A stretch of DNA of 64,000 nt from Escherichia coli. Its GTDB lineage: Bacteria; Pseudomonadota; Gammaproteobacteria; Enterobacterales; Enterobacteriaceae. Positions within the stretch are counted from its first letter, which is position 1. Every line of letters starts with the position of its first letter. The notes beneath the pieces were generated by a model that saw nothing but the letters and a program-made list of their open reading frames with translations, was not told the DNA's origin and did no database searches. Shown in pieces: positions 2,349-9,535 of this stretch. The stretch lies in the NCBI RefSeq assembly GCF_030013595.1, contig NZ_CP122768.1; one strand, given 5' to 3'. The translations under genes and the position numbers were made by a program.

Positions 2349-2672
2349 ATGAAGATGCCAGAAAAACATGACCTGTTAGCCGCCATTCTCGCGGCAAAGG
2401 AACAAGGCATCGGGGCAATCCTTGCGTTTGCAATGGCGTACCTTCGCGGCAGATATAATGGCGGTGCGTTTACAAAAACAGTAATCGACGCAACGATGTG
2501 CGCCATTATCGCCTGGTTCATTCGTGACCTTCTCGACTTCGCCGGACTAAGTAGCAATCTCGCTTATATAACGAGCGTGTTTATCGGCTACATCGGTACT
2601 GACTCGATTGGTTCGCTTATCAAACGCTTCGCTGCTAAAAAAGCCGGAGTAGAAGATGGTGGAAATCAATAA
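2349..2672 (+). CDS. S: Holin/antiholin S (class I holin)
   Basis: 107 aa; dual-start [10 protein letters not shown]...; sequence recalled as near-identical to lambda S. Confidence 0.9.
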
Positions 2673-3132
2673 TCAACGTAAGGCGTTCCTCGATATGCTG
2701 GCGTGGTCAGAGGGAACTGATAACGGACGGCAGAAAACCAGAAATCATGGTTATGACGTCATTGTAGGCGGAGAGCTATTCACTGATTACTCCGATCATC
2801 CTTGCAAACTTGTCACGCTAAACCCCAAACTCAAATCAACAGCAGCCGGACGTTACCAGCTTCTTTCCCGTTGGTGGGATGCCTATCGTAAGCAGCTTGG
2901 CTTGAAAGATTTCTCTCCGAAAAGCCAGGACGCAGTTGCACTGCAGCAGATTAAAGAGCGTGGCGCTTTACCTATGATTGATCGCGGTGATATCCGTCAG
3001 GCAATCGACCGTTGCAGCAATATCTGGGCTTCACTGCCGGGCGCTGGTTATGGTCAGTTCGAGCATAAGGCTGACAGCCTGATTGCAAAATTCAAAGAAG
3101 CAGGCGGAGCGGTCAGAGAGATTGAGGTATGA
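2656..3132 (+). CDS. R: Endolysin R (lambda-type lytic transglycosylase)
   Basis: 158 aa; [24 protein letters not shown]... recalled from lambda R; overlaps S stop. Confidence 0.9.
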
Positions 3133-3596
3133 GCAGAGTAACCGCGATTATCTCCGCTCTGGTTATTTGCATCATCGTCTGCCTGTCATGGGCTGTTAAT
3201 CATTACCGTGATAACGCCATCGCCTACAAAGAACAGCGAGATAAAAAAGTCAGTGAGCTGAAGCAGGCGACCGCCACCATTACTGACATGCAGCAGCGCC
3301 AGCGTTCTGCTGATGCGCTCGATGCTAAATACACGAAGGAGTTAGCTGATGCGAAAGCTGAAAATGATGCTCTTCGGCGCAAGCTTGATAATGGTGGTCG
3401 GGTGTTCGTCAAAGGAAAATGCCCTGTGCCATCCTCAGCCGAAACCTCCGGCGCCTCCGGCATGGGCAATGATGCCACCGTCGAACTCTCTCCAGTTGCT
3501 GGACGAAACGTTCTCGGTGTCCGGGACGGAATTATCCGCGACCAAACAGCACTGAGAACGCTTCAGGAATACATCAGGACGCAATGCCTTCGATGA
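3129..3596 (+). CDS. Rz: Spanin inner-membrane subunit Rz
   Basis: 155 aa; N-terminal TM segment and coiled coil; N-terminal half recalled as lambda Rz, C-terminal half divergent. Confidence 0.85.
3349..3555 (+). CDS. Rz1: Spanin outer-membrane lipoprotein Rz1, embedded in Rz in the +1 frame
   Basis: Embedded ORF with lipoprotein signal (LIMVVGC lipobox) and proline-rich region; true start may be an internal Met. Confidence 0.7.
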
Positions 3597-3796: not shown

Positions 3797-3941
3797 ATCT
3801 GCAACAAACGCGCTTCACACGCGCGACTTATGAACACAGAACCTTTCAGGATGACCCTTGAGGATGCCGGTTTGGTGATCGGTGCCTTTCTGTGGGCCGG
3901 AATCCTGTGTGACAAGGTTCATCACTAAAAGGTGAGCACTG

Positions 3942-4484
3942 ATGAATTATCCAACTATCGTTAACGGCATCGATTTCCGAGAACTGATTTTTGTGGCAAA
4001 CAACGATCCGGTTACAGATTCTTTTATGGTGGCAAAAGCATTTGGAAAGCTGCCGAAGAACGTGGTTCGTGACATTGAGCGAACCATAGAAGCTTGCCCT
4101 CCTGAGTTTGATACAAAGCTCAACTTTGAGCTTTGCTATAAAAACAATGAGTTACAGAATGGTAAGCCGCAAAAATTCTACCGTCTACGCAAGGATGGGT
4201 TGATGCTTTTGGTTATGTCCTACACCAAAAAAGAAGCAATGCGTATCAAAATTGCTTACATCAACGCATTTAACTGGATGTACGCCATGCTTCAGGTTGG
4301 TCATCGTCAATTTGAAGAAGAGAGAAATGCCGTAATGCTGGAGTACATGAAAGAGAAGGATGTTGCCAGCATGTCAGGTCGCCTGCTAAATCGCTGGGGC
4401 AAAATTAAGAAGCCACAGTTGCTGGCTAGAATTGAACGCCTTGAACAGCACGGGCAAACCGTAATCCCCGGACTCATCAATTAA
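3942..4484 (+). CDS. rha: Rha-family phage regulatory protein
   Basis: 180 aa; N-terminal region typical of Rha/ORF6N-type phage regulators; position between lysis and terminase genes as in P22-like phages. Confidence 0.65.
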   Translation: MNYPTIVNGIDFRELIFVANNDPVTDSFMVAKAFGKLPKNVVRDIERTIEACPPEFDTKLNFELCYKNNELQNGKPQKFYRLRKDGLMLLVMSYTKKEAMRIKIAYINAFNWMYAMLQVGHRQFEEERNAVMLEYMKEKDVASMSGRLLNRWGKIKKPQLLARIERLEQHGQTVIPGLIN

Positions 4485-4691
4485 CGGCAGTACCGCGAAA
4501 CAACCCAAGCCAGTAAGTGGGGAAATAACTGAAAGATGAACCTCCAGCCTTATGGCAAAAAAGATTCTTTGTGGTGGCGGACTGATGGAAAGACATCGGA
4601 TAGAATAAAACAGTGGCTAGGGTAGCTCCCGAAAAGCGGAATCGTCACCGCCAGCCACTGAATCTATGACGAACAACTAGACGAGGTTGAT

Positions 4692-4934
4692 ATGAGTGAA
4701 ATTGATAAAATAATAAATGGTACATGTAACTTTCAATCAATGCCGCCAGGTAGTTATGTAAAACAATGTAGTGAAATAGTTAATGGTCAGCTTGTAATGT
4801 CAAATGCAGGACGTGGAGTTTCTACGGATGAAAAAAAATCAATAAATGAAGCCCTATTAAGCATCAATGTTTTTGACTTGTTTCGCCCATCTTGGGTTAT
4901 TTTGCAAAATAGTAGTCAATTCCCACATTATTGA
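4692..4934 (+). CDS. Hypothetical small protein (low-GC moron)
   Basis: 80-aa ORF with markedly AT-rich codon usage compared with flanking phage genes; followed by a T-rich stretch. Confidence 0.45.
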   Translation: MSEIDKIINGTCNFQSMPPGSYVKQCSEIVNGQLVMSNAGRGVSTDEKKSINEALLSINVFDLFRPSWVILQNSSQFPHY

Positions 4935-5081
4935 TAAATTAATTAATAAATTGGTCGCTCAGGCGGCCTTTTTTATTGCCATCACAAAAGCCATTCCCTA
5001 CAGAGTGGCTTTGATAATGGCTTATACCCTACACGGGATAACTTAACTGATATCCCTTTTAACGGATAAACGGAGCCAACA

Positions 5082-5324
5082 ATGGCAGAGATTATTCCCA
5101 TGACTGAAGAACAGAAATTCCAGTTAGAGATTTACAAGCTGGTCATGAACCAGAACGCAGCCGCAGAAGAAGCATTTCAATTCATTGGCACTGACGAACT
5201 GAAGCTTGAGCTATTCAAAATTCACTTCCAGTCAGGTGGCGCTAATTCAGATATCACGACCCGAACTATCGAAGCGGTGCGTAAATCGAAGGAAGCGTTA
5301 GACCTGTTCACTACCGGAGCATAA
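5082..5324 (+). CDS. Hypothetical phage protein upstream of small terminase
   Basis: 80-aa acidic ORF with phage-like codon usage; conserved position in P22-like genomes. Confidence 0.5.
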   Translation: MAEIIPMTEEQKFQLEIYKLVMNQNAAAEEAFQFIGTDELKLELFKIHFQSGGANSDITTRTIEAVRKSKEALDLFTTGA

Positions 5325-5403
5325 ACATGGCAACTCAAGGTTTCGACAACCCATCCAAATTCCGCGATGAATGGGATAAGCAAGCAGAAGGGAAATAATC
5401 AAT

Positions 5404-5892
5404 ATGGCAGCACCAAAGGGCAACCGATTTTGGGAGGCCCGCAGTAGTCATGGGCGAAATCCTAAATTCGAATCGCCTGAGGCGCTGTGGGCTGCTTGTT
5501 GTGAATACTTCGAGTGGGTAGAAGCTAACCCGCTATGGGAGATGAAGGCGTTCTCGTATCAGGGTGAAGTGATACAAGAGCCTATCGCCAAGATGCGAGC
5601 GATGACCATTACCGGACTCACTCTGTTCATTGATGTGACGCTTGAAACATGGCGCACATATCGCCTGCGAGAAGATTTATCTGAAGTCGTTACGCGAGCA
5701 GAGCAGGTCATCTACGACCAGAAATTCTCTGGCGCAGCCGCTGACCTTCTCAACGCTAACATCATCGCCCGTGATTTGGGCCTCAAAGAGCAGTCGCAAG
5801 TTGAAGACGTGACACCTGATAAGGGAGATCGCGATAAGCGACGCTCTCGTATCAAGGAGCTATTCAACCGTGGAACTGGACGCGATTCTTGA
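5404..5892 (+). CDS. Terminase small subunit (P22 gp3-like)
   Basis: 162 aa; [29 protein letters not shown]... recalled as P22 gene 3 product. Confidence 0.85.
5671..5692 (+). other. Putative pac site (headful packaging initiation) inside the small terminase gene
   Basis: Sequence gaagatttatctgaagtcgtta matches my recollection of the P22 pac site, which lies within gene 3. Confidence 0.5.
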
Positions 5893-7369
5893 TAACCTGA
5901 GCGACGAAGAGCAAATCGAGTTGCTCGAGCTACTCGAAGAAGAAGAGAACTACCGGAACACACACCTGCTATATGAATTTACGCCATACAGCAAACAGCG
6001 TGAGTTCATCGACGCCGGGCATGACTATCCAGAGCGCTGTTTTATGGCTGGTAACCAGCTTGGTAAGTCATTTACTGGTGCTGCTGAAGTCGCGTTTCAC
6101 CTTACCGGGCGTTATCCGGGCACAAAAGGCTATCCGGCTGATGGTAAATATGGTGGGGAGTGGAAAGGTAAGCGTTTCTATGAGCCTGTTGTCTTCTGGA
6201 TTGGCGGCGAGACAAACGAGACTGTAACCAAAACGACTCAACGCATCCTGTGCGGTCGTATCGAAGAGAATGATGAGCCTGGCTACGGCTCCATACCGAA
6301 AGAGGACATCATTAGCTGGAAGAAGTCTCCTTTCTTTCCGAACCTTGTTGATCACCTTCTGGTTAAGCATCACACGGCTGATGGCGTTGAAGATGGCATT
6401 TCAATCTGCTACTTCAAGCCATACTCGCAAGGTCGTGCTCGCTGGCAGGGTGACACAATCCACGGAGTGTGGTTTGACGAAGAACCACCATACAGCATTT
6501 ATGGCGAAGGGCTTACCCGTACCAACAAATACGGGCAATTCTCAATCCTGACGTTTACCCCGCTGATGGGGATGTCTGACGTTGTTACCAAGTTCCTGAA
6601 GAATCCCAGCAAGTCGCAGAAAGTGGTCAACATGACCATCTATGACGCTGAGCACTATACCGACGAGCAGAAAGAGCAAATCATCGCATCCTATCCAGAG
6701 CATGAGAGAGAGGCTCGAGCTCGCGGTATTCCTACGATGGGTAGTGGTCGAATCTTCCAGATACCGGAAGAGACGATTAAGTGTCAGCCGTTCGAGTGTC
6801 CTGATCACTTCTACGTAATTGGCGGGATGGATTTCGGATGGGATCACCCTCAGGCGCAGGTTCAGCTTTGGTGGGATAAGGACGCAGACACAATCTACGT
6901 TTCGCGCGTGTGGAAGGCGAAAGAAAAGACAGCTGTTCAGGCGTGGGGAGCCGTTAAACCATGGGCGCATAAAGTGCCAACCGCATGGCCCCATGACGGA
7001 AACCAGCACGAGAAGGGCGGCGGTGAGCAGCTTAAAGGGCAGTACGCGGACGCTGGTTTTATGATGTTGCAGGAGCATGCGACATGGCCTGATGGCGGTA
7101 ACGCTGTGGAGCCTGGAATCACTGAATTGCGCGACATGATGCTTGATGGTCGCTTCAAAGTATTCAACACCTGTGAGCCATTCTTTGAGGAGTTCCGCCT
7201 CTATCACCGTGATGAAAACGGGAAGATCGTCAAGCTTAACGACGACGTGCTATCCGCCGTTCGCTATGCATACATGATGCGCCGCTTCGCAAAAATGATG
7301 CGCGACATCAAAAAACCAAAAGAGAAAAAGATACCAGCCCCAATCAGGCCCATCGCACGGAGAACTTAA
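5870..7369 (+). CDS. Terminase large subunit (P22 gp2-like)
   Basis: 499 aa (same length as P22 gp2); ATPase/nuclease-type motifs; overlaps terS end. Confidence 0.85.
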
Positions 7370-9535
7370 ATGGCCGACGAAAACAGACTCAATTCCATTC
7401 TGTGTAAGTTTGACGCAGACTGGATGGCGAGCGATGAAGCCAGAACCGAGGCGACAAATGACCTGTATTTTAGCCGAGTGTCGCAATGGGATGACTGGCT
7501 ATCAAACTACACCACCCTGCAATATCGCGGACAATTCGATGTTGTCCGCCCGGTTGTCAGGAAGTTGGTCGCAGAGATGCGCCGGAACCCTATCGACGTT
7601 CTCTTCCGACCAAAAGACGGTGCTAATCCTGATGCTGCCGATGTGCTGATGGGGATGTATCGTACTGATATGCGCCATAACACGGCAAAAATTGCCGTTA
7701 ATGTTGGCGTTCGTGAGCAGATAGAGTCAGGCGTTGGTGCATGGCGTCTGGTCACGCAGTACGAAGACAACGACCCAACAAGCAACAATCAGGTAATCCG
7801 ACGCCTGCCAATCCATGAAGCCTGCTCACACGTCATATGGGACGCCAACAGCAAGCAGATGGATAAGAGCGACGCTAAGCACTGCACGGTGATTAACGCC
7901 TTGTCACGCAATGGCTGGAAAGAGTTCGCAGAGGATTACGGTATTGATCCTGACACCTTGCCATCTTTCCAGAATCCGAACGATACATGGCTGTTTCCGT
8001 GGGTATCGAATGATGTCGTCTACGTCGCTGAGTATTACGAGGTCGAAGAGAAGAAGGAGAAGGTCTTCATCTACCGCGACCCGCTGACAGGTGAGCCGGT
8101 CAGCTATTACCAGCAGGATATCAAAGACGTCATCGACGACCTGGCTAATCGTGGATTCATTAAGGTAGCAGAGCGCAAGGTGAAGCGTCGGCGTGTGTAT
8201 AAGTCGATCATCACCTGCACGCAGATACTGAAAGACCGAGAAAAGATAGCCGGAGAGCATATCCCAATCGTTCCAGTGTATGGAGAATGGTCATTCGCTG
8301 GTGACAAGGAGTGCTACGAAGGAGTGGTAAGGCTGACGAAAGACGGTCAACGCCTTCGTAACATGATCATGTCATTCAACGCCGATATTGTTGCTCGTTC
8401 ACCGAAGAAGAAACCGACCTTCTTCCCTGAGCAAATCGAAGGCTACGAATACATGTACGGTGGAAATGATGACTATCCGTACTATCTGCAGAACAGGACC
8501 GATGAAAACGGTAACGACCTGCCGATTGGTCCAATCTCCTACATGGAAAACCCTGAAGTGCCGCAAGCCAACGCTTATATGCTTGAGGCTGCCACCAACG
8601 CAGTGAAAGAGGTGGCTAGTCTTGGTGTGGATGCGCAGGCAGCAAACTCTCAGGTCGCTTTCGATACCGTCAATCAACTGAACATGCGGGCAGACCTTGA
8701 GACATACGTGTTTCAGGATAACCTGGCTACCGCAATGCGACGTGATGGCGAGATTTATGCCTCAATGGTCAACGATATTTATGACGTTCCTCGTCATGTA
8801 ACGCTGACACTTGAAGATGGAAGCGAGAAAGACGTTCAACTCTATGCGCAAGTTGTCGATTACCAGTCCGGCAATGTGGTCACACTCAACGACATTCGTG
8901 GTCGCTATGAGTGCTATACAGACGTTGGACCATCCTTCCAGAGTATGAAGGAACAGAACCGCGCAGAGATTCAGGAGTTACTCACCAAGGTTCCGCAAGG
9001 TACTCCAGAGTTCCAGATGCTGATGCTGCAATACTTCACGCTCCTTGACGGTAAAGGCGTCGAGATGATGCGAGAGTACGCGAACAAGCAACTGGTGATG
9101 ATGGGGCTGAAGAAACCAGAAACACCTGAAGAGATGGAGATGGTACAACAGGCACAACAACAGCCGCAGCAGCCATCAGCAGAGCAAATTCAGGCGCAGG
9201 GTATCCTTCTGCAAGGTCAGGCTGAATTGCTCAAGGCAGAGAACCAACAGGCACAGATTCAGGTTGAAGCCGCCAAGGTTGAAGCCCAAAACCAACTCAA
9301 CGCCGCGAAGATTGCAGAAATCTTCAACAATATGGACCTCGACAAGCAGGCAGAACTGCGTGAGTACCTCAAGCTAGTAGGTCAATTCCAGCAACAGCGC
9401 AGCAAAGATGCTCGTGCTAACGCTGAGCTGCTTCTTAAAGATGCAGACCAGAATCATTCACAACGCATGGATTTCGCGAATCTTATGCGTCAAGTTCAAA
9501 TCCCCTCCGGCGGAGTAGCCGAGACACCTCAATAA
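7370..9535 (+). CDS. Portal protein (P22 gp1-like)
   Basis: 721 aa; Gln-rich C-terminal coiled-coil barrel region; position after terL. Confidence 0.85.

Follow-up and report, generated by a model that had tools for sequence, protein, structure and literature searches.

How did a small, strikingly AT-rich open reading frame (ORF) come to stand in the late operon of a P22-like prophage, and what might its product do there? The ORF occupies positions 4692-4934 of a 64,000-nucleotide (nt) stretch of Escherichia coli DNA (assembly GCF_030013595.1, contig NZ_CP122768.1), hereafter the window, which begins within a P22-like (Lederbergvirus-type) E. coli prophage. A first-pass annotation, made from the sequence alone, had described it as an independently acquired cassette at a module junction, between rha and the terminase genes. 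We find that window 4603-5002 is very probably a real coding moron cassette, and that its ORF is preceded by a structured RNA leader whose loop covaries with the ribosome-binding region of whichever gene follows. The overall explanation that we favour, and regard as reasonably probable, is a self-contained, leader-gated moron cassette with a single-protein accessory function. It would comprise a weak promoter-like site, a leader of the int-alpA class, an orphan 80-codon gene and an intrinsic terminator, all placed within the late operon.

A coding cassette at a variable late-operon site

The ORF starts with ATG, runs for 80 codons and ends at TGA; like the other parts and signals of the cassette described below, it lies on the plus strand. 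Its GC content is 0.329, falling to 0.198 at third codon positions (GC3), compared with 0.43-0.52 and 0.49-0.57 in the neighbouring genes (rha, 0.433 and 0.492; the DUF2560 gene, 0.449 and 0.506; terS, 0.519 and 0.521; terL, 0.511 and 0.574) and with a GC content of 0.495 for the window as a whole. The minimum of the sliding GC profile (0.33) is located exactly over the ORF. Spacers of 207 nt from rha and 147 nt to the next gene set it apart, and a Shine-Dalgarno motif, GAGG (4683-4686), is found 5 nt 5' of the ATG. The T-rich stretch that had been noticed after the stop codon corresponds to an intrinsic-terminator-like element (4953-4978), which starts 18 nt after the stop and consists of the hairpin GGTCGC-TCAG-GCGGCC (4953-4968; -13 kcal/mol, z = -2.7) followed by TTTTTTATT. 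The AT-rich codon usage and the separate spacers reported by the first-pass annotation were thus borne out. Its placement of the ORF was right for rha, which lies upstream, but not for the terminase genes, from which the ORF is separated by the DUF2560 gene (5082-5324).

An open frame of 80 codons would be expected by chance at this base composition with a probability of only ~0.001. Two homologues were identified at 73-74% protein identity (P0002 and P0004), and comparison of the ORF with their genes by the Nei-Gojobori method gave a synonymous divergence (dS) of 0.64-0.88, a non-synonymous divergence (dN) of 0.14-0.15 and a dN/dS ratio of 0.17-0.22. The nucleotide differences between the ORF and a homologue are distributed 10/8/27 over the three codon positions, and the changes are concentrated at synonymous sites (Fisher p = 2.6e-7 and 2.6e-5). 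A dN/dS of ~0.2 over a dS of 0.64-0.88 indicates that the protein sequence has long been maintained. Of the copies examined, all six distant ones and 13 of the 14 close ones retain an intact frame. Judged by these substitution patterns, the ORF is a real protein-coding gene under purifying selection.

A homopolymer of eight A residues (4831-4838) lies within the ORF. Truncated variants of 52 amino acids (aa), with indels at or near this run, occur in other genomes (P0005, with 15 members, P0006, and the IMG/VR locus L023), and a single E. coli copy among the 14 measures 244 nt instead of 243. These length variants could represent sequencing errors, decay or on/off switching.

The extent of the insertion was obtained by pairwise BLAST and alignment with the empty site of phages HK620 and P22, in which homology to the window ends at 4602 and restarts at 5003, giving 4603-5002 for the whole insertion. 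Other phages and prophages hold different cargo at the same place. A Gp49-family gene stands in place of 4598-4980 in phage Huey, and an 89-aa ORF takes the position of our ORF in BIS08P22 (L001). In E. coli NCCP15648 (L012) and in L005, a DUF551 gene replaces exactly 4690-4952, the leader around it being identical up to 4689 and the terminator identical from 4953. In other prophages, this terminator also closes cassettes with DUF551 and one with a 57-aa ORF. The DUF551 and Gp49 (PF13876) genes have no sequence similarity to our ORF; literature on what DUF551 does at this site was not found, the C-terminal domain of lambda Ea22 excepted. In one E. coli genome (L011, 763-1177), a Gp49-family cassette is stacked head to tail behind a cassette carrying our ORF, with 9 bases (window 4981-4989) present at both junctions, which suggests that cassettes are added via short shared sequences.

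The flanks of the insertion (4485-4602 and 5003-5081) are present in 199 phage records, none of which covers the middle. Searching the ORF protein by tblastn against 50,697 phage records returned one chance match (E = 8), no match was found in 72,556 plasmids, and the ORF was likewise absent from 100,044 species-representative genomes. Among 5426 complete E. coli genomes, 2519 contain the flanks and 14 (0.26%) contain the ORF, in each case as a single chromosomal copy. DUF551 cargo occurs in many of the 2519 flank-sharing genomes; DUF551 and Gp49 are common at the site, whereas the ORF is rare. In E. coli strain 19KM2326N (L002, 2703-9802), IS911 and IS30 break the lysozyme/terminase region of a prophage with an identical ORF, and the cassette is intact; strain N9 likewise has the identical ORF. 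In IMG/VR, 11 copies of the ORF were found with 90-100% identity, all at the same site and with the same leader and terminator; their neighbours vary, with rha present in only one and with differing types of Rz and terS.

The cassette also occupies a second site, so that its two insertion sites lie one on each side of the lysis genes. The P0004 homologue is located between the Q antiterminator and holin genes in five contigs, whose backbones share ~97% identity with P22-like phages of E. coli and Shigella; the unit found there corresponds to window 4630-4979 (the ORF and terminator with a portion of the leader), with 79.5% identity. P0002 lies at the lysis-packaging site of a phage without rha. 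In the prophage of the window, the gap between Q and holin is occupied by two tRNA genes, tRNA-Asn(GTT) and tRNA-Thr(TGT) (1951-2106), and in the P22-like loci L004-L008 it is occupied by a 73%-identical ORF79 cassette, which in L004 is directly followed by a NUMOD4/HNH_3 homing-endonuclease gene (6533-7060). The phage carrying P0002 (L003) has an HNH_3 gene in its Q-holin gap and a full-length match to Rfam isrJ (RF01393; 2807-2885, 44 bits) just downstream of Q.

Far from being a gene of known function that is conserved at this position in all P22-like phages, the ORF is patchy, and its patchy presence and transfer as a unit make the cassette a moron by the comparative definition: it is present or absent among syntenic relatives, differs from the surrounding genes in base composition and has its own terminator, the last recognised at the sequence level. 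The proposal of an independently acquired cassette at a module junction is strongly supported by the empty site in P22 and HK620, the alternative DUF551 and Gp49 cargo, the counts of 0/199 phage records and 14/2519 genomes, and the second site. The gene is dispensable, as P22, HK620 and Sf6 are functional phages without it.

A structured leader with a covarying loop

Directly upstream of the ORF is a structured 5' leader (4610-4672) that the first-pass annotation did not mention. It matches the int-alpA RNA of Rfam (RF02996) over the entire model (1-71 of 71) with a score of 42 bits, compared with a gathering score of 35.8, and shares with this family the three-way junction and the conserved CUAGG...CCGAAAAG core. 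The minimum-energy fold of the leader gives the same three-way junction (-21.7 kcal/mol, z = -3.7), composed of a P1 helix (4611-4617 paired with 4654-4660), a hairpin 1 of the form GGG-UAGCU-CCC (4620-4622 paired with 4628-4630) and a hairpin 2 of the form GCGG-AAUCGUCA-CCGC (4636-4639 paired with 4648-4651), the loop of which, AAUCGUCA, occupies 4640-4647.

Within the loop of hairpin 2, the segment UCGUCA (4642-4647) is complementary, as read from the sequence, to two places further downstream: UGACGA at 4667-4672 (site 1) and GACGA at 4680-4684 (site 2), the latter overlapping the Shine-Dalgarno motif GAGG at 4683-4686. The generality of this arrangement was assessed in 87 distinct leaders from viral contigs, comprising 60 different loops, by scoring Watson-Crick complements of at least 5 nt and using as a control the same loops and downstream regions re-paired at random. 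A complement to the loop is present anywhere downstream in 76 of the 87 leaders (87%, versus 21% in the permuted set), in the Shine-Dalgarno zone (-16 to -4) in 63% (versus 15%), at the distal site in 62% (versus 8%) and at both sites in 38% (versus 2%). For example, Pseudomonas phage IME307 has the loop CCUCA with targets UGAGG and AGAGG, while many marine contigs have the loop CGUUAC with targets GUAACG and AACGUAAGG. The consensus line of RF02996 itself contains a hairpin-2 loop, CCuU, that is complementary to the 3' tail AAgG.

This covariation between loop and targets points to a structure in which the loop can pair with either site, with pairing at the proximal site hiding the ribosome-binding site. 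In the window, pairing of the loop UCGUCA with site 1 (UGACGA) would leave the ribosome-binding site free, and pairing with site 2 (GACGA-GG) would occlude it. We therefore hypothesize that the leader acts as a translational gate, a reading to which we give somewhat better than even chances; its behaviour as a switch is deduced from the complementarities. The phage L005 has two leaders with an identical loop, UCGUCA: that at 5937-6000 precedes ORF79 in the Q-holin gap, and that at 8214-8276 precedes a DUF551 gene between the lysis and packaging genes. These two leaders would cross-regulate if the RNA acts in trans.

The leader is distributed far beyond our ORF. The same element precedes DUF551 cargo in L005 and L012 and our ORF in L011, and is also found in L001. 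An 89-nt query (4603-4691) retrieved 21 phage records with 75-89% identity, the hosts of which belong to Enterobacter, Edwardsiella, Pantoea, Klebsiella, Vibrio, Shewanella and Pseudomonas; in every phage record inspected, the leader ends a few nt before the start codon of a different gene. A pattern for the 20-nt core matches at least 120 IMG/VR contigs (L029-L148). The stems of hairpin 2 vary (GCGG, GCAG, CTTG, GACG, GGGTGT and others), each with a matching 3' strand, and 113 of 121 copies inspected have a hairpin-2 stem; P1 also varies, with compensating changes between leader copies. The position of the leader directly before a start codon in at least 100 viral copies argues for a cis-acting 5' untranslated region rather than, or besides, a free small RNA.

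A census of the downstream cargo grouped 107 ORFs, among the matches listed, into 29 unrelated clusters. DUF1376 (33), DUF927 primase-like proteins of ~950 aa (25) and tail-tube-like proteins (5) were counted among these matches, and the remaining cargo includes homing endonucleases of the NUMOD4/HNH_3 and NUMOD3/AP2 types, antirepressor-type proteins (KilA-N with ORF11CD3, Bro-N with ANT, and Rha), PAPS reductase, HTH_36, MUG113/T5orf172, DUF551 and several small proteins of no known family. The dominance of DUF1376 and DUF927 would suit a position at the head of replication modules of phages or satellites. Endonucleases, antirepressors and replication proteins are plausibly genes whose mis-expression is harmful. 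Two other accounts of the leader were considered and rejected: that it is only a remnant of a homing-endonuclease cassette, given that endonucleases are a minority of the cargo among the 29 clusters, and that it is an intrinsic attenuator formed by P1 and a U-tract, given that, of 63 distinct copies, no more than 13 have a U-tract behind P1 and the leader of the window has none there.

Upstream of the leader is a promoter-like site (4578-4606), with a -35 element CGGACT (4578-4583), a 17-nt spacer and a -10 element TAGAAT (4601-4606), which agrees with the consensus at 8 of 12 positions and would start an RNA at ~4611-4613, the first bases of P1. Among 103 distinct leader copies, 79 have -10-like hexamers 13-19 nt upstream of GGCTAGG, compared with 53 ± 4.4 in shuffled sequences, and 20 have promoter sites scoring at least 9/12, compared with 4.4 ± 2. 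Terminators have little effect on the Q-modified late transcription of lambdoid phages, and the presence of one after the ORF points to a second, monocistronic mode of expression. From these signals, the cassette may have two modes of transcription, one giving a short monocistronic RNA bounded by the cassette's promoter and terminator and the other being read-through of Q-modified late transcription.

The protein product and its possible roles

The ORF encodes a mildly acidic protein of 8.9 kDa (isoelectric point 5.6), identical to RefSeq WP_133158974.1. No membrane segment was detected, the highest 19-residue hydropathy being 1.1. The single pair of cysteines seen at first pass (C12 and C26) is invariant in the family, which has 53 invariant residues at 73% identity, and the C-terminal third of the protein is its most hydrophobic and most conserved part. 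The statement that the product has no recognisable motif was upheld by searches of Pfam (E up to 0.1), PHROGs and the component models of PADLOC-DB 2.0 (E up to 1), none of which returned a family match, and by a search of PDB sequences with the family profile, which returned no match.

The homology and structure prediction that the first-pass annotation had suggested as a check gave no clue to function. A word-indexed search of 5.8 billion proteins yielded six clusters, with the same result for the single sequence and for the family profile. When 1.84 billion representatives were searched exhaustively with phmmer, 38 matches had E < 1e-3, of which one, P0004, is a real relative. The other 37 are giant repeat proteins and were rejected as homologues, as their scores are sums of 4-15-bit matches to individual repeats, of which there are up to 13; the repeats are of unrelated types, an Ig-like repeat (P0007) and a Cys-rich 41-aa repeat (P0011 and similar), for which hhalign against single units gave 17% and 28%. 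The Ig-like candidate is a beta structure, whereas the AlphaFold model of the ORF protein is helical. This model, calculated by AlphaFold2 from a four-sequence alignment, has three helices with a predicted local distance difference test score (pLDDT) of 65 and a predicted template modelling score of 0.47, and was not used; Foldseek comparison with the PDB gave nothing below E = 1.6, the hits being mostly myoglobins. In the databases searched, the protein thus has no detectable family, domain or confident fold. Since a 350-bp unit carries the ORF from site to site, the protein presumably acts alone, and it is presumably a small, soluble, cytoplasmic one.

A protein of this kind, in a dispensable accessory role, would most likely bind a host or competing-phage protein rather than catalyse a reaction. 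Our tentative suggestion, for which we put the chances below even, is that it is an effector of phage-host or phage-phage conflict or of host takeover, with defence and counter-defence not separable. Two specific forms of conflict can be compared, each of which we consider unlikely when taken singly, and to the same degree. The first-pass annotation had pointed to defence or anti-defence cargo, which amounts to a guess. An anti-defence inhibitor of CRISPR, restriction or abortive infection would suit a small, mildly acidic product encoded by a single gene that moves as a unit through a variable accessory site. The one pointer comes from the record of phage Huey, which labels two genes of the region, the gene at the Gp49 position and the gene upstream of it, as 'anti-CRISPR protein'; however, the labels are the record's own annotation and the proteins are unrelated to that of the ORF. 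Moreover, anti-defence genes are usually expressed early, whereas the ORF lies in a late operon, and general sequence searches found no similarity to anything. Protection of the lysogen by a prophage-expressed protein, through superinfection exclusion or defence against other phages, would draw on the promoter-like site and terminator, which could give a monocistronic transcript independent of late antitermination. The late-operon morons lambda bor, lambda lom and HK97 gp15 work as lysogen-expressed genes and offer a parallel. The P22-like 'ant moron' has been treated in PMC2629481. Against such protection, the protein has no PADLOC match and neither the membrane segment nor the signal peptide that are common in exclusion proteins, at 33% GC the DNA is a probable target of H-NS silencing in the lysogen, and only 0.26% of the genomes carry the gene.

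It is less likely still that the gene is a selfish or nearly neutral passenger whose protein confers no benefit, with the unit spreading by recombination via conserved arms and perhaps following homing endonucleases that have this leader too. The extreme rarity and patchiness of the gene and the existence of truncated alleles would fit, and endonucleases of the HNH and GIY-YIG types are common cargo of the leader, and in L004 a NUMOD4/HNH_3 gene lies directly downstream of the homologue; however, a neutral passenger would not be expected to show a dN/dS of ~0.2, which means a protein sequence long kept, and an intact frame in 13/14 close and 6/6 distant copies. An accessory lysis factor, such as a modulator of lysis timing, seems quite improbable. 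Both insertion sites do border the lysis cassette, the first being flanked by Q and holin and the second by Rz and the packaging genes, and the hydrophobic C-terminal third is the best conserved, but these are general moron sites of lambdoid late operons that also hold unrelated cargo (tRNAs, DUF551, Gp49 and rha), the protein has no membrane segment, and P22, HK620 and Sf6 lyse without the ORF. We give very little credence to the ORF being no gene at all, whether a chance frame in an AT-rich spacer or a leader-peptide-like frame whose product does not matter, even though it is short, lacks homologues of known function and stands behind a regulatory leader in the manner of icd behind P1 c4. 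The low probability of the frame, the predominance of third-position changes and the 53 invariant residues all speak for a coding sequence; in addition, the terminator directly after the ORF leaves no downstream gene in the cassette for translational coupling, which counts against a leader peptide.

Several observations weigh against a leader-gated cassette with a conflict effector as its cargo. An intact leader may not be required, given that the Q-holin copy, with its degenerate hairpin 1, scores below the Rfam threshold, and Rfam types RF02996 as a small RNA, which would allow a purely trans-acting or other role. The promoter match in the window is weak, its -35 element agreeing at 3/6 positions and the site scoring below the promoter-scan threshold; the proposed dual transcription is drawn from such sequence signals, and expression of the ORF is accordingly a prediction. 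The truncated alleles and the great rarity of the gene fit a nearly neutral passenger, and the AlphaFold model, at pLDDT 65, is of low confidence.

With regard to significance, the ORF itself is a textbook moron at a typical site for one, with a very small family; screens of small accessory proteins from phages could reasonably include it, though without priority. More is to be gained from the leader, as its loop covaries with the ribosome-binding region while the downstream genes differ between copies. If confirmed, the leader-gated cassette would give the int-alpA motif a function as a translational gate in cis or in trans, would explain the precise exchange of cargo between a conserved leader and terminator in P22-like prophages, and would provide a compact, re-targetable regulatory part. 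A wider proposal, which we regard as speculative and rather doubtful, treats int-alpA-class leaders as antisense gates that are portable and programmable and serve many unrelated phages and satellites. A conserved three-way-junction scaffold would carry a hairpin-2 loop co-evolving with its two targets in the same mRNA, one of them the ribosome-binding site. It would silence potentially harmful cargo, such as homing endonucleases, antirepressors and replication initiators, until a defined moment, possibly also incoming copies in trans in the manner of P1 c4 and P4 CI, with our ORF as a gated conflict effector without relatives.

Prophage neighbourhood and comparison with known systems

In the late region around the cassette, the Q antiterminator gene (1053-1676) is followed, beyond the two tRNA genes, by the holin, lysozyme and Rz genes (2349-3596) and then by rha (3942-4484, plus strand), which encodes Phage_pRha and ORF11CD3 domains, lies outside the cassette and is itself variable between phages. 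On the other side, the DUF2560 gene (PF10834; plus strand, Pfam match 1e-43) is conserved and also lies outside the cassette, and is followed by terS, terL and the portal gene (5404-9535). The order after the portal gene is P22-type coat protein, ant, tailspike, integrase and tRNA-Arg(CCT). The right end of the prophage falls within window 23377-27864, where the tailspike gene (23377-25272, plus strand) and a P4-type integrase gene (25349-26539, minus strand) converge with 76 bp between them; tRNA-Arg(CCT) (26665-26739, minus strand) follows, with a host gene of the formate/nitrite-transporter family beyond it, and is the probable attachment site of the prophage.

The DUF2560 gene is 98.8% identical, at the protein level, to 'ORF80' of phage P22. 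Identity of our ORF with P22 ORF80 was considered and rejected: the two are alike in length (80 aa), neighbourhood and strand, but they are different genes, as P22 ORF80 is the adjoining DUF2560 gene and our ORF lacks a PF10834 match and is absent from P22. The shared length is therefore coincidental. In P22 (L149, AB426868), ~650 bp of other DNA (~900-1590) precedes the ORF80/DUF2560 gene; it contains an unannotated open frame on the opposite strand followed by a hairpin and T-run, and the only feature annotated there is a 33-codon 'ORF25'.

The classical lambdoid morons, in the definition of Juhala and Hendrix, include lambda bor and lom and HK97 gp15, and lambda bor occupies the gap between the lysis and packaging genes. 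Like these, the present cassette is an extra late-operon gene found in some syntenic relatives, of odd base composition, with a terminator after it and a promoter-like site before it, and dispensable for lytic growth. A P22-like 'ant moron' has also been discussed (PMC2629481). Unlike the described morons, whose products are membrane proteins or lipoproteins, the product of the ORF is unrelated and soluble, and the cassette occurs at two sites and carries a long structured leader.

The leader differs from what the name int-alpA implies, as it lies between rha and an orphan ORF in a late operon, with the integrase gene 20 kb away and no alpA nearby. It stands 20 nt upstream of the ORF in sense orientation. 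The int-alpA RNA is reportedly a candidate small RNA from the screen of Weinberg et al. in 2017. The term int-alpA is absent from the main text of that paper (PMC5737381), and the one other paper found to name it merely lists it.

A closer parallel in mechanism is offered by the c4 and CI RNAs of temperate phages and satellites. P1 c4 controls icd-ant, which includes an antirepressor gene, P4 CI controls the replication gene alpha, and the small icd ORF stands behind P1 c4. Each of these antisense RNAs (c4 in P1/P7, CI in P4) comes from the leader of the operon it regulates, an antirepressor or a replication operon (PMC3632133). The Rfam C4 model has no match in window 3800-5500 at E up to 1, so that the likeness is one of analogous mechanism and not of membership. 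The two arrangements differ in that a single loop would pair with both sites here, whereas P1 uses two loops, and in that the cargo in the window is an orphan ORF, unlike the targets in P1 and P4. In common with c4 and CI, the cassette has a structured RNA in the leader of the operon that it would control, with a loop complementary to two sites on the same transcript, one of them at the ribosome-binding site of the first ORF, and antirepressor and replication genes, the targets of c4 and CI, are common cargo of the int-alpA-type leader.

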